A stretch of 64,000 bases of DNA, from NCBI GenBank assembly GCA_964229935.1, contig CAXRGI010000293.1:11385-75384 (forward strand). Reading direction: 5' to 3'. The position numbers and the translations under genes are program-made. The notes beneath the pieces are model-generated. The model saw only the letters and a list, made by a program, of their open reading frames with translations. It was not told the origin of the DNA and made no database searches. The stretch comes from Opitutales bacterium. GTDB lineage: Bacteria > Verrucomicrobiota > Verrucomicrobiia > Opitutales > Opitutaceae. Shown here one piece after another: positions 39,494-64,000 of this stretch (positions are counted from its first letter, which is position 1; each line of letters begins with the position of its first letter).

Positions 39494-41719
39494 ATGCGCC
39501 GCTTTTCCCCGCACCTGCCGCTGCTGGCCGCCGCCCTACCCGCCCTCCTCGCCGCCGCCACCCCCGAGGAGGAGGCGCTCCGCCATTTCCGCGACCTCGC
39601 CGAGACGCGCAACTACACCCTTGGCCGGCCCGTCTCGCCGCAGGTCACACCCGACGGCAAGCACGTCGTCTTTCTTCGGTCGCTGCCGCGCGACCCGACG
39701 CTGCGCCTCTTCGAGTTTGATCTGGCCGCCAACCGGGAGCGTGAGCTGCTCACCCCCGCCCAGCTGCTCGGCGGCGCCGAAGAGAACCTGAGCGCCGAGG
39801 AAAAGGCCCGCCGTGAACGCCAACGGCAAAGCCTCAAGGGGTTCACCGCCTACCAGATGTCGCGGGACGGCGCGCGCCTGCTCGTCACCCTTTCCGGACG
39901 CCTCTACCTGTTTGAACGCGCCTCCCTGAAGGTCATCCAGCTTCCCGGATCGGGCTGGATCGACCCGCGCTTTTCGCCCGACGGCCGCCTCGTGGCGGCC
40001 GCCGGGGCCGACCGTGAGCTGCACGTCATCGATCCCGCCGCCGGCACCGCGCGCGCCGTGACCTCCGGCGCCACCGCGACCCTCTCCCATGGAACCGCCG
40101 AGTTCGTCGCGCAGGAGGAGATGAGCCGGAGCCGCGGCTTCTGGTGGTCGCCGGACTCCGCGACGCTGCTGGTCCAGCAGACGGAGGAATCAGGCGTTGA
40201 GGTGCGCCACATCGCCGACCCGCTGCATCCCGAGGCGCCGCCGGCGCGTTTCTTTTACCCGCGCGCCGGGACCGCCAACGCGGTGGTTCGCCTCTTCCTC
40301 GTTTCGCGGGAAGGCGGCGCGACCAAGCCGGTGAGCTGGGACACCAACGCGTTCCCGTACCTCGCCCACGTCAATTGGACGCCGCGCGCGCCGCTCACGA
40401 TCCTCGTGCAGAACCGCGCGCAAACGGAGCAGCGCCTGCTCGCGGTGAACACCGCGACCGGCCGCACCCAGGAACTCCTCCGTGAAACCGACACCGCGTG
40501 GCTGAATCTCGACGACAACGGATCCGGCTCCACATCGGCGTTCCGGCCTCCGCTCTGGCTCGCCGACGGCTCCCGTTTCCTTTGGACGACGGAGCGCAAC
40601 GGCTCTTGGCAGGTCGAGCTGCGCGACGCCTCCGGCGCGCTCGTCCACGAGATCACCCCGGTGACGTTCGGCTACCGCCGCCTGCTGGGAGTCGACGAGG
40701 AGTCCGGCACGGTGTGGGTCGCCGGAGGCGAGGACGCGCGGGAAACGCACGTCTGGACGTTTCCGCTCGGCGGCGGAGCGCGCGGGCGGGCGATCACCCG
40801 CGGTCGCGGGATGCACGGCGCGACCTACGCCCACGAGGCCAGGCTGCTGCTGCGCACCACGGATCTCTTCGACGGCACCTGGCGGCTCGACGTGGTTTCG
40901 GCGGACGACGACCGCGTGGTCGCCACCCTGCCTTCTCTCGCCGAGCCCATTCCGCGCGCCCCGAACACGGAGCTGACGCGCACGGGTGGAGAGCCCTCCT
41001 TCGACGCGGCCGTCACGCGGCCCCGGAGTTTCGACTCCACCGCCAAATACCCGGTGATCCAATGGGTGTACGCGGGCCCGACGAGCAAGACGGTGACCGC
41101 CAACCTGCGGGCTTACCTTCCCGACCAGTGGATGGCGGACCAGGGTTTCATCGTGGTTCGCTTTGACGGCCGGGGCACGCCCTGGCGGGGCCGTGCCTGG
41201 GAGCGCGTGGTGAAAGGAAACCTGCTCGACACCGCCCTCGCCGACCAGATAGCGGCGCTGCGGGCCCTGGCGAAACAGGTGCCGCAAATGGCCCTCGAGC
41301 GCGTCGGCGTGAGCGGCTGGTCGTTCGGGGGCTACTGCGCGGCGATGGCGGCGAGCCGGAGGCCGGATATGTTCCGGTGCGGCGTGGTGGGAGCGCCCGT
41401 GGTGACGTGGGAAAACTACGACACCCACTACACCGAGCGTTACCTCGGCCTGCCCGCCGAGGCGCCGGAGGCATACAGCGTGAGCAACGTCACCACCTAC
41501 GCCGCCGAGGCGCGCCGCCCGTTGCTGCTCGTGCACGGACTCGCCGATGACAATGTCTACTTCCAGCACACGCTCCAGCTCGCCGACGCACTCTTCCGTG
41601 CCGGCAAAACCTACGAGCTCCTGCCGATGATGGGCACCCACATGGTGAGCGATCCGCTGATCCGCATGCGTCAGCAGACACGCATCATGGACTTTCTGCA
41701 GCGCGAACTGCGTCGCTGA
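39494..41719 (+). CDS. S9B dipeptidyl peptidase IV family protein
   Basis: Signal peptide; EFVAQEEM, WWSPD, GWSFGG, DDNV, C-terminal catalytic His. Confidence 0.9.
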   Translation: MRRFSPHLPLLAAALPALLAAATPEEEALRHFRDLAETRNYTLGRPVSPQVTPDGKHVVFLRSLPRDPTLRLFEFDLAANRERELLTPAQLLGGAEENLSAEEKARRERQRQSLKGFTAYQMSRDGARLLVTLSGRLYLFERASLKVIQLPGSGWIDPRFSPDGRLVAAAGADRELHVIDPAAGTARAVTSGATATLSHGTAEFVAQEEMSRSRGFWWSPDSATLLVQQTEESGVEVRHIADPLHPEAPPARFFYPRAGTANAVVRLFLVSREGGATKPVSWDTNAFPYLAHVNWTPRAPLTILVQNRAQTEQRLLAVNTATGRTQELLRETDTAWLNLDDNGSGSTSAFRPPLWLADGSRFLWTTERNGSWQVELRDASGALVHEITPVTFGYRRLLGVDEESGTVWVAGGEDARETHVWTFPLGGGARGRAITRGRGMHGATYAHEARLLLRTTDLFDGTWRLDVVSADDDRVVATLPSLAEPIPRAPNTELTRTGGEPSFDAAVTRPRSFDSTAKYPVIQWVYAGPTSKTVTANLRAYLPDQWMADQGFIVVRFDGRGTPWRGRAWERVVKGNLLDTALADQIAALRALAKQVPQMALERVGVSGWSFGGYCAAMAASRRPDMFRCGVVGAPVVTWENYDTHYTERYLGLPAEAPEAYSVSNVTTYAAEARRPLLLVHGLADDNVYFQHTLQLADALFRAGKTYELLPMMGTHMVSDPLIRMRQQTRIMDFLQRELRR

Positions 41720-41764
41720 GTGCGGGGTAGCGCCACCGCGAGGCGCCAGGATTCCCGTCCGCCC

Positions 41765-41791
41765 GATTCACCAGACGGTGTCTGGTGAATC
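41765..41791. repeat. perfect palindrome upstream of the yhcG-like gene
   Basis: GATTCACCAGAC-GGT-GTCTGGTGAATC (12-bp arms). Confidence 0.9.
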
Positions 41792-41881
41792 ACCGGGCCG
41801 CCCGGCGACATCGGCGCCTCTACCGCTTTTTCGGGTCAGGGCGGAATCGCGGCAAAAGCGGCCGGTCGCGTTTCTCCCCGA

Positions 41882-42985
41882 ATGACCAAATCAGACGGCC
41901 CGCGGGAAAACACCGGTTCACAAGCGAGCTTGCGCCGCGCCCCCGCGACCTACGCGCGGCTAGTCGCGGACCTAGGGTGTATGCTGGTGGAGGCGAGACA
42001 GGTGTCCGCCCGCGCCGTCAACGCGGTGATGACGGCCACGTACTGGGAGTTCGGCCGCCGCATCGTTGACTTCGAGCAGCGCGGAGCCGCCCGCGCCGAC
42101 TACGGCGCCCGGCTTCTGCGCCGACTTGCGCACGATCTCACCCGCCGGCACGGGCGCGGCTTCTCCCTCTCCAATCTGCAGAATTTCCGCGCGTTCTACC
42201 TGCTCTGGCCAATTCACCAGACAGCGTCTGGTGAATCCAGCCGCGGCCGGGCGCGGCCGGTTTTCGGCCTGCCGTGGTCGCATTATGTGCGGCTACTGAC
42301 CGTGAAGGACTGTGCGGCCCGCCGCTTCTACGAGGCGGAGGCGTTGCGCGACGGCTGGTCCGTGCGGCAGCTTGACCGCCAGATCGCCACGGCGTTCCAC
42401 GAACGCACATTGCTGTCCCGCGCCCGCGGAAATTTTTCAGTGCGCCCCGCGACGCAGCGGAGCCGCGAAAGGCTGAGACCCGAGGATGAAATCAAGCACC
42501 CCCTGGTCCTTGAATTCCTGGATCTGCACGAGGCGCACTCGGAGTCGGATCTCGAGGAAGCGCTCCTGCTTCATCTCGAGAAATTCCTGCTCGAGCTCGG
42601 CGGCGACTTCGCGTTCGTGGGCCGGCAGCGTCGCCTGAGGATCGGAGCCGAATGGTACCGCGTGGACCTGCTCTTCTTCCACCGACGGCTCCGCTGCCTT
42701 GTGGTGATCGATCTCAAGATCGGCCGTCTCACCCACGCGGACACGGGGCAGATGAACGTTTACCTGAATTACGCCAGCCGCCACTGGAGGCGGAAGGGCG
42801 AGAATCTTCCGGTGGGGCTCATTCTTTGCTCCGAGCAGGATGAAGCGCTGGCGCAGTACGCGCTGAAGGGGATGGGAAGGCGGATCCTTACCCGCGAATA
42901 CCGCCTGGCGCTCCCACCCGAGGCGGCGCTGGTGGAGCAATTGCAGCACGCCCGGCTACGTCTCGAGGTCAAGGCCCCCCGGTGA
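41882..42985 (+). CDS. YhcG/DUF1016 family PD-(D/E)XK nuclease-domain protein
   Basis: VNAVMTATYWEFG, GFSLSNL..FR.FY, LPWSHY, WSVRQLDRQI, FLLELG.DFAFVGRQ, VDLLFFHR.L.C.VVIDLK, GQMNVYL. Confidence 0.92.
   Translation: MTKSDGPRENTGSQASLRRAPATYARLVADLGCMLVEARQVSARAVNAVMTATYWEFGRRIVDFEQRGAARADYGARLLRRLAHDLTRRHGRGFSLSNLQNFRAFYLLWPIHQTASGESSRGRARPVFGLPWSHYVRLLTVKDCAARRFYEAEALRDGWSVRQLDRQIATAFHERTLLSRARGNFSVRPATQRSRERLRPEDEIKHPLVLEFLDLHEAHSESDLEEALLLHLEKFLLELGGDFAFVGRQRRLRIGAEWYRVDLLFFHRRLRCLVVIDLKIGRLTHADTGQMNVYLNYASRHWRRKGENLPVGLILCSEQDEALAQYALKGMGRRILTREYRLALPPEAALVEQLQHARLRLEVKAPR
42212..42236. repeat. in-frame second copy of the palindrome inside the yhcG-like ORF
   Basis: ATTCACCAGAC-AGC-GTCTGGTGAAT, encoding IHQTASGE; 23/25 identical to 41766-41790. 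Confidence 0.9.
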
Positions 42986-43030
42986 AGACCTTGGTCCCGG
43001 TGCCGGCTCCTCCAGCGAACGCTGGATCCA

Positions 43031-44137
43031 TCAGGGCAGCAGATACACCTCGACGAGGGCCACGCCCGTCGTGCTGCCGGCCCCGGCAACCCGGCAGGTG
43101 TAGGCGCCCGGCTCGAGGGTGAGAACGAGCGCGCTGTCCCGGCTGCCGGCGGCCAGCGCGAACGCACCCGTCTCGACCCCGGCGGTGGCGATCGCCGCAC
43201 CGTTCGCCTGTTCCTGCCAGTTGTCGTTCGTCGCGATGGCGCTTGAACCGCGGAAGACGGTGAGCACGGGGTCCGCGAGCGTCCCGGCGACGCCGAAGGC
43301 GGCCAACCCCGGCCCCACCGCGCGAACCAGCACACGGCGCGGGGCGGCGCCGCTGATGACGAGACCGGGGATGAGCACATTGTCCCCCGACCCCACGAAC
43401 GCGCGCGTGGAAAGGTTGGCCAGCTGGCCCGCGGCGCTTCCCGACGCCGGCGCCGCGCCTGCAAGGATCTCCACCGGCAACTGGCTCACATCGAGATCCG
43501 GCGCGGTGTTCCATCGCTTAACCCATCCGGGTGGCGCCGCGACCGTGGTCCGAAGAACCACGGTGTTGTCGAGGTCGAGATCCGACGTCCAGATGAACTT
43601 CGCCCCGGTGAAAGCCTCGGCCGCGTAGTCGCCGTCCGGCCGGACCCGTTCGGCGGTGTACTCCGTGGCCCGTTCCCAGCCGCTGTCGTCAAACCCCGGC
43701 AGGTGCCAGCCGGCCGGGAGAGCGGCGCGCTCGACGGTGGGGCGATTGACGTCACGGTTGGCCGGGGCGCGGAAGAAGCATTTCGCCTTCCAGGAGCCAC
43801 TGGTCACCGTGCCGTCGCCCAGCCGCAGGATGAAGCCGGCGTCGCCGATGCGATTCCCGTACTCAAGACCCCCGGAGGGGGTAGCGTTGTCCTTGGCCAG
43901 CACCGCGATCGTCAGCGGGTACTCCGGCAGGATCCGCACGGAAATCTGATTGTGCGGGATGAAGTCGATCGCGTCGACGGCGACCAGCTTGCCGTTGACG
44001 AAAATCGCGCACCAGTTGTCCGCGAAGGCATTGAGCGTGATGGTGTCGGCGATCACCGGCTTCACCTGCGCGGGCAAGGTACCAGCGGTGGCCGCCAGCA
44101 AAGCGAGCCACGGGAAAATCGGCGGGGGCGATCTCAC
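43031..44137 (-). CDS. secreted protein: unnamed 'ADNW' domain + one LxNxSxR repeat domain
   Basis: Signal peptide; N-terminal part is a close paralog of 62564-63292 (ADNW..NGKLVAVD..DFIPHN..PEYP.TIAV.AKDNA..IGD.GF..FDDSGWE.ATEY..FIWT.DLDLDN); C-terminal LANLSTR...ALVEVY. Confidence 0.85.
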   Translation of the reverse strand: MRSPPPIFPWLALLAATAGTLPAQVKPVIADTITLNAFADNWCAIFVNGKLVAVDAIDFIPHNQISVRILPEYPLTIAVLAKDNATPSGGLEYGNRIGDAGFILRLGDGTVTSGSWKAKCFFRAPANRDVNRPTVERAALPAGWHLPGFDDSGWERATEYTAERVRPDGDYAAEAFTGAKFIWTSDLDLDNTVVLRTTVAAPPGWVKRWNTAPDLDVSQLPVEILAGAAPASGSAAGQLANLSTRAFVGSGDNVLIPGLVISGAAPRRVLVRAVGPGLAAFGVAGTLADPVLTVFRGSSAIATNDNWQEQANGAAIATAGVETGAFALAAGSRDSALVLTLEPGAYTCRVAGAGSTTGVALVEVYLLP

Positions 44138-63352: not shown

Positions 63353-63366
63353 CCCGCCGCGGCGGG

Positions 63367-64000
63367 TCATTCGTCCAAACCACCGGCCTTCTCGGCCTTC
63401 CGCCACTTGGGGCGGGCGCCGGAGGCGGCCTGGGCGGCGCTGGCCTCGATGCGCGCGATGCGCTCGCTGTCCCGCTCCTTACCGACGAGGTCGAAGTGGA
63501 TCGGGCAGCCATTGAGGCTGAACTCGTCGACCAGTCCGGCCTCCAGGTAGCGACGGTAGGACTCGGAGAGCTTCTCCTCGCGGTTGCAGAACAGCCGGAT
63601 GCGGAAGGGCCGGTTGCCGGTCTGCGTGGCGTAGTAGATGCGGAATCGACGGCCGGAGATCGCCGGCGGCGGGTTGCGCTCCGCCAGATAGGCGAGCGTC
63701 TGGTTCAGGCGACCCGTCGGGATCTTCTTGTCGAGCGTGCGGTGCAGGCGCACCGCAGCGTTGAGCATGCGGTCGATCTCATGCCCGCTGAGCGCGGAGA
63801 CGAAGATCACCGGGGAACCCGGGGTGAAGAACAGGCGGTCGAACAGCGCCTTCTCGTATTTTTCGCGGTAGTCCCGCTCGCTGTCGTAAGGCTCGAAACC
63901 GCCCTGCTTCCGGAAGGCCTCCTGCACGAGGTCCCACTTGTTCACGACGACGACGATCGGCTTGCCCTCCTTCACGGCCTCGCCGGCGATCGCCTTGTCC
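63367..64000 (-). CDS. der: ribosome biogenesis GTPase Der, C-terminal part (starts beyond the window)
   Basis: VVNKWDL, FVSALSG, TGRLN, RIYYATQ...P...LFCN...SYRRYL KH-like domain. Confidence 0.92.
   Translation of the reverse strand, partial: DKAIAGEAVKEGKPIVVVVNKWDLVQEAFRKQGGFEPYDSERDYREKYEKALFDRLFFTPGSPVIFVSALSGHEIDRMLNAAVRLHRTLDKKIPTGRLNQTLAYLAERNPPPAISGRRFRIYYATQTGNRPFRIRLFCNREEKLSESYRRYLEAGLVDEFSLNGCPIHFDLVGKERDSERIARIEASAAQAASGARPKWRKAEKAGGLDE

Follow-up and report, generated by a model that had tools for sequence, protein, structure and literature searches.

In a 64,000-nucleotide stretch of DNA from an Opitutales bacterium (contig CAXRGI010000293.1, positions 11,385 to 75,384; the whole stretch is called the window here), a gene of the YhcG/DUF1016 nuclease family carries one palindrome in frame within the linker between its two domains, P(int), and a second copy with identical arms in the non-coding DNA in front of it, P(up). 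With a probability of roughly 55%, P(up) marks the edge of the insertion that carries the gene and is a recombination junction or a scar copy. Linker palindromes of this kind form a family that is constrained at the DNA level, in two lineages far apart from each other stand-alone copies coincide exactly with breaks in synteny, and some genes are mosaics whose halves meet at the linker. Breakage and rejoining at the palindrome as the cause of this pattern, together with its mechanism, we infer. The features at issue are the following.

P(up), 41765..41791, no strand assigned: non-coding, stand-alone palindrome with 12-bp arms and the 3-nt loop GGT, located 45 nt past the stop codon of an S9 peptidase gene, with 90 nt between it and the ATG of DUF1016
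P(int), 42212..42236, forward strand: coding palindrome, in frame, with 11-bp arms and the loop AGC, read as IHQTASGE in the inter-domain linker
YhcG/DUF1016 gene, 41882..42985, forward strand: 367 amino acids; N-terminal helical domain, linker and C-terminal PD-(D/E)XK nuclease domain

The sequence ATTCACCAGAC-NNN-GTCTGGTGAAT is present twice in the window, at 41766-41790 with the loop GGT and at 42212-42236 with the loop AGC, the two copies being spaced 446 bp apart. As stated in the original prediction, which had been made from the letters of the window, the 11-bp arms of both copies are identical (22/22 arm bases) and only loop bases differ, namely two out of three. The upstream copy really has 12-bp arms, GATTCACCAGAC...GTCTGGTGAATC, spanning 41765-41791; counted with 11-bp arms, it ends 91 nt before the ATG, where about 90 nt had been predicted. 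The internal copy encodes residues 111-118 of the open reading frame (ORF) 41882..42985 and is indeed read in frame as IHQTASGE. When up to three mismatches are allowed, the window holds two matches while each of 100 shuffles holds none, hence chance is excluded. Across the whole genome assembly (4,314,410 bases in 411 contigs, 86% complete, 67.5% G+C), just these two sites are found, with no site for a reversed control. The 11-mer arm itself occurs five times on both strands of the genome, four times within the two palindromes, against an expectation of 0.69. The genome search for the arms that had been proposed as a check thus places the palindrome nowhere but at this gene, and a genome-wide repetitive extragenic palindrome (REP) unlinked to DUF1016, which had been named as a refuting outcome, is not what the genome holds. 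The sole other near-matches are a 7-bp-arm palindrome, ACCAGAC-CAG-GTCTGGT (G000:C295:7866-7882), and a single 11-mer arm (G000:C310:4857-4867).

Similarity extending beyond the arms, the other outcome that would have spoken against the prediction, was not found either, as the likeness of the 60-nt flanks of the two copies stays at shuffle level in either orientation (637, 628, 869 and 958 of 1000 shuffles score at least as high as observed). A 9-of-11 match to the left of both copies in a MAFFT alignment was discounted, flank similarity being at chance level. The peptidase frame is open past its TGA stop and ends at a TGA in the right arm of P(up) (window 41717-41788), and at metagenome locus L179 (1463-1531) a 22-codon, ATG-started frame crosses the upstream palindrome of that locus and stops just beyond it; such open frames running into upstream palindromes are probably due to chance.

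The palindrome in the linker is a property of the gene family and is present in most of its members at a constant position, the disordered linker which separates the first N-terminal helical block from the remainder of the protein. Homologues were sought in 60 relatives from the genus, with a match in 29 of 61 genomes, and 21 of these 29 loci have a perfect linker palindrome with arms of 9-16 bp and a centre of 1-3 nt. Often two to three units are found per linker, 36-70 nt apart, and their arm sequences vary by gene (ATTCGGCAGAC, ATTTCCGAGAC, AATTCTCTCACA, CAATTGGGCAACGG and others). At the protein level, the alignment displays a variable linker with the units IRQTVSAE, IWQTVSAK, ILAQAVPEL and IVQQPV between two conserved blocks, much as the original prediction had stated for DUF1016 proteins (a variable linker with QTxSxE-like repeats). 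In a cross-phyla sample of 80 loci, one archaeon included, perfect palindromes with arms of at least 9 bp number 33 in the linker windows (in 33/80 loci; 16,824 nt, 1.96/kb), compared with two in the rest of the gene (64,687 nt, 0.031/kb) and 62 in the flanks (412,962 nt, 0.15/kb). With one mismatch allowed, 64 linker palindromes are found in 52 of 101 genes, of which 48 are perfect and 46 are symmetric up to the single central base, with 60 distinct arm sequences among them; their shape is often ATT...CAGAC-N-GTCTG...AAT. The copy at 42212-42236, in frame and with gene-specific arms, is a member of this family.

What is kept at the linker is the DNA symmetry, in a tolerant peptide, and not the peptide itself. 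P(int) uses codons which are rare for the genome (ACA, 3.6% of Thr; TCT, 2.9% of Ser; ATT, 10.7% of Ile; GGT, 16% of Gly); the joint probability of its eight codons given the peptide is 1.4e-6, and its GC3 is 0.38 compared to 0.81 for the ORF. In the AlphaFold model (mean pLDDT 74), residues 109-131 are coil, with pLDDT below 50 at 113-123. Because of these rare codons, the disordered loop, and arms which vary by gene and yet are symmetric, it is the symmetry of the DNA that appears as the maintained property; the view that the hairpin rather than the peptide is selected or maintained, put forward from the two copies in the window, is thereby borne out by the codons and by 60 distinct arms among 64 palindromes, 48 of them perfect. 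A published description of a palindrome in the YhcG/DUF1016 linker was not found in a literature search, and the accessible portions of PMC7967276 and PMC4316617 draw no link between a yhcG/DUF1016 gene and a palindrome.

Further loci add to the picture of the linker. One metagenome DUF1016 gene (L153:1491-1535) has, at the end of its contig, a longer palindrome with the same core, whose perfect arms measure 22 bp each (45 bp in total). Several DUF1016 genes (L021, that is G016:C408, as well as L223, L228 and L232) are fragmented or lose their frame in the region of the linker, and in L021 the N-terminal block lies in the wrong frame within one open frame; because of these broken genes, the linker may be a frameshift hotspot as well. 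Two tandem DUF1016 genes, the first of them in two pieces, occur in one Verrucomicrobiota genome (L225:105-2427). Fixed-spot coding palindromes are, moreover, not peculiar to DUF1016, as RhuM genes (PF13310) of the same phylum show: 16 of 30 loci (L256-L285) have a perfect palindrome of their own, e.g. AACTATCCGGAAATTCCGGATAGTT, in the first codons of the Pfam match. These palindromes measure 21-27 bp, sit at a fixed spot and have gene-specific arms, and their shape is unlike that of DUF1016. Hence, the feature is not confined to one family.

The placement of P(up) becomes apparent by comparison with relatives, for which the upstream neighbour served as synteny anchor (matches at E <= 1e-60 in 22 of 60 genus genomes). 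The corresponding features of the window are as follows.

S9/DPP-IV family peptidase gene, 39494..41719, forward strand: upstream neighbour with the Pfam domains Peptidase_S9 and DPPIV_N; synteny anchor
Leader, 41792..41881, forward strand: the 90 nt from P(up) to the start codon
Indel, 41765..42994, forward strand: about 1.23 kb relative to relative G005, comprising P(up), the leader, the DUF1016 ORF and 9 nt; left limit approximate

In the closest relative, G018, the peptidase is 93% identical over a 299-residue C-terminal query, and the best DUF1016 match is only E 7e-6, on another contig. The 45 nt past its peptidase stop are homologous to the window with four differences, followed by a palindrome with the same arms (GATTCACCAGACA-G-TGTCTGGTGAATC) and the loop AGT at the same place as P(up). 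Exactly at the right edge of this palindrome, homology ends; 142 unrelated bases follow and then a homologue of window 63356-63528 with 90.8% identity. About 21.5 kb of the window (41791-63355) are absent at this place in G018. In G005 (peptidase 87%), on the other hand, the homologue of window 42995 onward begins 45 nt past the peptidase stop, with neither palindrome nor DUF1016 in between, while G024 and G471 (both 89%) have other DNA downstream of the peptidase. No palindrome with perfect arms of at least 8 bp was found in the first 400 nt after the peptidase gene in G005, G024 and G471. Judged by this synteny with G018 and G005, the segment 41765-42994 of about 1.23 kb is an indel which starts with the upstream palindrome and ends 9 nt past the DUF1016 stop, and where synteny breaks the palindrome can be retained by itself. 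Both copies, 446 bp apart, are also found on L146, a metagenome contig from the same species (99% protein identity), with AGT instead of GGT as the upstream loop.

A parallel exists in Escherichia coli. In strain K-12 the order is gltD-P1-8.3 kb-yhcG-P2-nanQ, where yhcG has three linker units, one of them also reading IHQT.SGE. P2 (ATTCTGCAGAC-AGT-...) is perfect and family-shaped and lies 16 nt past the yhcG stop, adjoining nanQ; P1 (ATTCGCCAGAC-TGT-...) lies 16 nt past gltD, 8.3 kb upstream. An avian strain has gltD-P-nanQ instead, and its single palindrome is flanked on the left as P1 is and on the right as P2 is, with arms like those of P1. An O157:H7 strain reads gltD-yhcG-P2-nanQ, with no palindrome after gltD and an internal yhcG palindrome that has the arms of P1. 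Among 5417 genomes matching the gltD end and the P1 region, 1161 are K-12-like. In an evenly spaced sample of 30 of the 5417 records, seven span the whole query, five stop at query base 258, where the palindrome has its right edge, 17 stop at base 220 immediately past gltD, and one matches elsewhere. Thus, a variable segment is flanked by stand-alone copies in this very distant lineage too, and breakpoints fall on the edges of palindromes. A divergent stationary-phase noncoding RNA, G0-10703, overlaps the K-12 yhcG 5' untranslated region by 128 bp (L286:1640-1830), according to the part of PMC7967276 that covers it.

Copies elsewhere were collected by a metagenome scan for the exact palindrome of the window, which gave 93 stretches, from which 80 loci were fetched. 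In 65 of these the palindrome is situated within a DUF1016 homologue that shares only 25-65% identity with the window protein, and in three it lies at or after an N-terminal piece of DUF1016; at L173, where yhcG neighbours nanK-yhcH, the gene is truncated precisely at the palindrome. Two loci, L154 and L179, have it 40 and 86 nt upstream of a DUF1016 ATG, and their own linker palindromes (CAGATTCGTCAGGCA... and AATTTCTCCAACAG...) differ from the upstream ones. The upstream palindrome of L056 is likewise unlike its own linker units, and L089 has a perfect upstream palindrome resembling its own degenerate linker palindrome. The remaining ten loci have no DUF1016 match with the window query, and among the neighbours at those of them that were scanned are a serine recombinase, ParB, a JetA-like DUF3375 protein, a NACHT protein, GntR/KsgA and an RNase T-like gene. 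At L167/L172 (about 1501-1560), an intergenic stand-alone copy lies between a GntR regulator gene and ksgA, and a second family-shaped unit (…ATTTATCCAGACGCTGT…) begins about 20 nt later, an arrangement resembling what is left of a linker with two units, with no gene around it.

A survey of the phylum with the degenerate pattern ATTNNNCAGACNNNGTCTGNNNAAT gave 37 sites in 26 of 401 genomes (one to four per positive genome), compared with one site for the reversed control. Out of 25 loci, 20 are in DUF1016 genes (15 intact, two cut by contig ends, three in pieces) and five are relic or stand-alone, with L210, L211 and L218 as relic loci where the palindrome outlives the gene. Around 137 non-redundant full-length genes, the density of perfect palindromes (arms of at least 10 bp, centre of at most 3 nt) is 0.19/kb within 200 nt upstream, 0.22/kb within 200 nt downstream and 0.041/kb beyond, where the near ones are not all family-shaped and the gene set includes loci picked by palindrome. 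An upstream bias of flank copies, as suggested by the window, L154, L179, L056, L078 and L089, was gone once downstream copies were counted (five upstream vs six downstream within 200 nt of the 137 genes). A comparison of 10-mers common to linker and flanks at 80 loci (linker 30/79 upstream and 36/80 downstream; controls 35/79, 23/80, 31/78 and 30/78) gave linker and control windows equal rates and was abandoned as too noisy a method. In 11,476 pairs from 152 genes, protein identities before and after the linker are correlated (r 0.75), and mosaics switching at the linker were found in L016/L017, with 46% identity before and 90% after, as well as in L215 and L220 against L230 (29% vs 70%).

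The protein itself falls into the YhcG/DUF1016 family with both domains above their curated cut-offs: DUF1016_N (PF17761) covers residues 35-175 (E 6.9e-38, 130.3 bits, cut-off 32.8) and YhcG_C (PF06250) residues 203-352 (E 6.8e-52, 175.9 bits, cut-off 32.5). It also matches the PADLOC candidate defence family PDC-S02 (E 8.5e-123), and the gene is the only one of its family in the genome. In an alignment of 21 sequences, D262 is invariant and D277 and K279 are nearly invariant; in our own reading, D262 and D277-x-K279 would be the residues of a catalytic D...(D/E)xK motif. No solved structure was found among relatives by sequence. With the C-terminal domain of the model as query, the top Foldseek matches are NucS/EndoMS (E 1.5e-4 to 5e-4), and less clear matches are the Card1/Can2 nuclease domains and restriction enzymes. 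Hence, from its sequence and predicted fold, the gene looks intact and its product is probably an active PD-(D/E)XK nuclease.

How a junction or scar copy could arise may be pictured as follows. The gene carries in its linker a palindrome that is perfect and symmetric at the DNA level. Most likely, arm-to-arm template switching during replication would keep each copy perfect and let the arm sequence drift, a process that would mimic covariation, while the linker peptide would merely tolerate the palindrome. The palindromes would then act as preferred sites of breakage and rejoining for DUF1016 genes and their neighbourhoods, a cause suggested by the pattern of copies: gene halves would be exchanged at palindromes, segments bounded by two copies would be lost, and single copies would be left at the borders, where they can outlive the gene. 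P(up) would accordingly be the border copy on the segment that brought the DUF1016 gene to this locus, or keeps it there. Its identical arms might stem from a recent copy of the palindrome alone, from recombination between two copies, or from the remains of a sister allele as in K-12. Candidate cutters are host enzymes acting on a hairpin or cruciform, slippage between the 25-bp repeats, and the DUF1016 nuclease itself. The bolder version, in which the palindrome is the cis-acting site of hairpin- or cruciform-directed cutting and rejoining by the DUF1016 nuclease itself, is doubtful. According to this version, the linker would contain a recombination site belonging to the gene itself, at which N-terminal blocks, halves of the nuclease and neighbouring DNA would be swapped or moved, copies like that at 41765-41791 would be att-like footprints of a self-mobilising defence module, and RhuM would behave likewise. 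Among the options that the original prediction had offered, a small element spreading with the gene comes closest to what is observed; its behaviour is that of a junction or scar bordering the inserted gene, and not that of a mobile repeat in many copies.

Several points weigh against a junction or scar. Contigs of four public runs covering 41000-43200 show no joint at either copy and no variant inside, although contigs cannot show rare forms and thus carry no information on recombination. The 22 identical arm bases with unrelated flanks are not explained by simple decay of a duplicated gene, so a recent copy of the palindrome only, recombination at the edge, or selection on the arms would be needed. 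A coding relic of DUF1016 was not found in 41720-41881 (family profile with all filters off, negative scores); the notion of a scar of an older gene copy thus leans on the analogy to E. coli. The left limit of the indel relative to G005 is blurred by divergence, and flank copies are rare among genes not picked by palindrome, a few of the 137 having one within 200 nt in a list that also holds biased loci. In the comparison with G018, 0/24 arm changes stand against 4/45 flank changes (P about 0.11 by our own arithmetic), which is not significant and shows neither selection on the arms nor neutrality. Finally, a regulatory or RNA role of the upstream copy could coexist with a junction. In one of the public runs, X15, an RNA-library contig over the middle of the DUF1016 gene has a joint that goes back 472 nt (42478 to 42007) with 11 extra letters; it is unrelated to the palindromes and could reflect an error of assembly or a molecule that is circular or duplicated.

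Among the rival explanations, a function of P(up) as RNA hairpin has a small but real chance. It would protect or end the 3' end of the peptidase mRNA or stabilise the 5' leader of DUF1016, its likeness to P(int) reflecting origin only, and as a secondary use this role is compatible with a junction copy. P(up) lies 45 nt past the peptidase stop with a strong stem (dG -19.3 kcal/mol as RNA, -12.1 kcal/mol as DNA) and is kept in G018 despite different downstream DNA; yet the palindrome is missing behind the peptidase genes of G005, G024 and G471. The stem is followed by CACCGGGCC and not by a U-tract, so the G+C-rich stem plus T run of an intrinsic terminator is not seen at P(up), and a consensus scan of 41500-43200 gave 0 promoter-like and 0 terminator-like sites. 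Rfam 15 returned for 41400-42600 only sraL (18.3 bits vs a gathering threshold of 39, E 0.18), overlapping neither copy. An RNA-library contig crosses P(up) (41549-41911), which is a weak argument as such libraries can hold DNA. Furthermore, an RNA stem does not require symmetry reaching the central base, and the 16 single mismatches in family palindromes are not enriched for G.U, with two G.T/T.G vs nine A.C/C.A; a wobble signal of a sense-strand RNA was thus not found among them, although numbers are small and coding constraints may bias them.

Autoregulation, as originally proposed, is unlikely. Here, the DUF1016 protein would recognise its own palindrome, with P(up) as operator and P(int) as second site for looping or as a roadblock. 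Perfect dyad symmetry is typical of sites for dimeric DNA-binding proteins, and symmetry up to the single central base in 46/64 palindromes, the 22/22 arm bases shared by the upstream and internal copies and the position of P(up) 91 nt before the ATG would all suit an operator. The check that had been suggested for it, co-variation of flank and linker palindromes, gave a divided answer: the two match here, resemble each other in L089 and agree partially in E. coli, but differ in L154, L179 and L056. Across homologues, upstream and linker palindromes do not consistently co-vary; most genes have no upstream copy or other flank copy at all, flank copies occur downstream too, and stand-alone copies sit beside unrelated genes. 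In addition, P(up) is kept in G018 with other DNA in place of the gene, and no promoter consensus turned up near P(up) in the scan. A relic of partial duplication, in which a gene segment with the linker was duplicated upstream and decayed until the self-correcting palindrome alone was recognisable, is quite unlikely. It would agree with palindromes outliving genes at L210, L211 and L218 and with loops that differ while arms do not, as if the arms corrected each other. However, arm-to-arm correction keeps symmetry within a copy and not identity between copies, and yet all 22 arm bases agree with the flanks at chance; besides, just 45 nt lie between the peptidase stop and P(up), where no coding relic is detectable. 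Very improbable is a small mobile palindromic repeat (REP/RAYT-, MITE- or RPE-like) that was moved by a transposase and landed by chance in the linker and upstream. The likeness confined to the palindrome with dissimilar flanks, the intergenic stand-alone copies on many metagenome contigs, and one Y1_Tnp gene in the genome could be taken in its favour. This gene, however, is on contig C321, while the window contig is C293 (the assembly is fragmented), and the genome has two copies only, both at the DUF1016 gene. Moreover, arm sequences are gene-specific, and the survey of 401 phylum genomes gave only one to four sites per positive genome, with 20/25 loci at the fixed DUF1016 spot.

YhcG/DUF1016 is among the commonest uncharacterised nuclease families, a candidate phage-defence gene present on many mobile elements, and a perfect, gene-specific coding palindrome at one spot across phyla is unusual in itself. 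Copies at indel borders in a Verrucomicrobiota genome and in E. coli point to an undescribed reshuffling of defence genes and their neighbourhoods. What the window newly contributes is a clean case, with its E. coli parallel, of a stand-alone copy marking a synteny break. The K-12 arrangement gltD-P-8 kb-yhcG-P-nanQ, together with natural strains having a single P, makes the question of recombination directly testable. Even in the least exciting case, that of a quasipalindrome which perpetuates itself and survives the loss of its gene, the locus would illustrate clearly, in nature, how template-switch homogenisation shapes a protein family and marks past gene turnover.

Template-switch mutation at quasipalindromes is known to homogenise the arms of inverted repeats and can mimic compensatory change, as stated in the available parts of PMC7202029, PMC8604942 and PMC8794818. 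Such homogenisation fits the 48/64 perfect palindromes and the symmetry up to the central base, while leaving unexplained the fixed spot in one protein family from bacteria to archaea and the stand-alone copies at indel borders. The attC sites of integrons are palindromic with conserved structure and variable sequence, lie at cassette borders and are recombined as folded strands. They are located after the cassette ORF, are imperfect and have extrahelical bases. The DUF1016 palindrome is instead perfect, has no bulges and lies inside coding sequence and, measured by these general features, does not resemble attC. REPs number tens to hundreds per genome and are not tied to one gene. In the portion of PMC7967276 that treats them, they are described as short extragenic palindromes able to form hairpins. 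Neither dispersed copies nor a linked Y1 transposase, as expected for REP/BIME with RAYT, are found here.

Palindromes translated within genes have precedents in the Rickettsia palindromic elements (RPEs), which are located in frame in genes (PMC4316617, in part), and in the coding palindromes of Nematomorpha mitochondrial genes (PMC6649704, in part). RPEs, however, measure 100-150 nt and occur in many unrelated genes, whereas the DUF1016 palindrome measures 25-29 bp and occupies a single homologous position, in the disordered linker of one family. The Nematomorpha repeats reach up to 284 bp and both of their arms encode conserved protein regions, unlike the DUF1016 linker palindrome. The Rpn (YhgA-like) proteins of E. 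coli are recombination-promoting PD-(D/E)XK nucleases linked to RecA-independent DNA transfer and phage defence, with a variable internal repeat region, as far as the accessible text of PMC5350276 and PMC10400941 goes, which describes no palindrome-based site for them. They share the PD-(D/E)XK superfamily with DUF1016 and belong to a different Pfam family; the two are linked by analogy only. Closest to P(int) are the linker palindromes of other YhcG/DUF1016 genes, which have the same protein position, shape and frame as well as perfect, gene-varying arms. Unlike those loci, the one described here has in addition a non-coding, arm-identical copy 446 bp upstream, placed at a synteny break relative to two close relatives.

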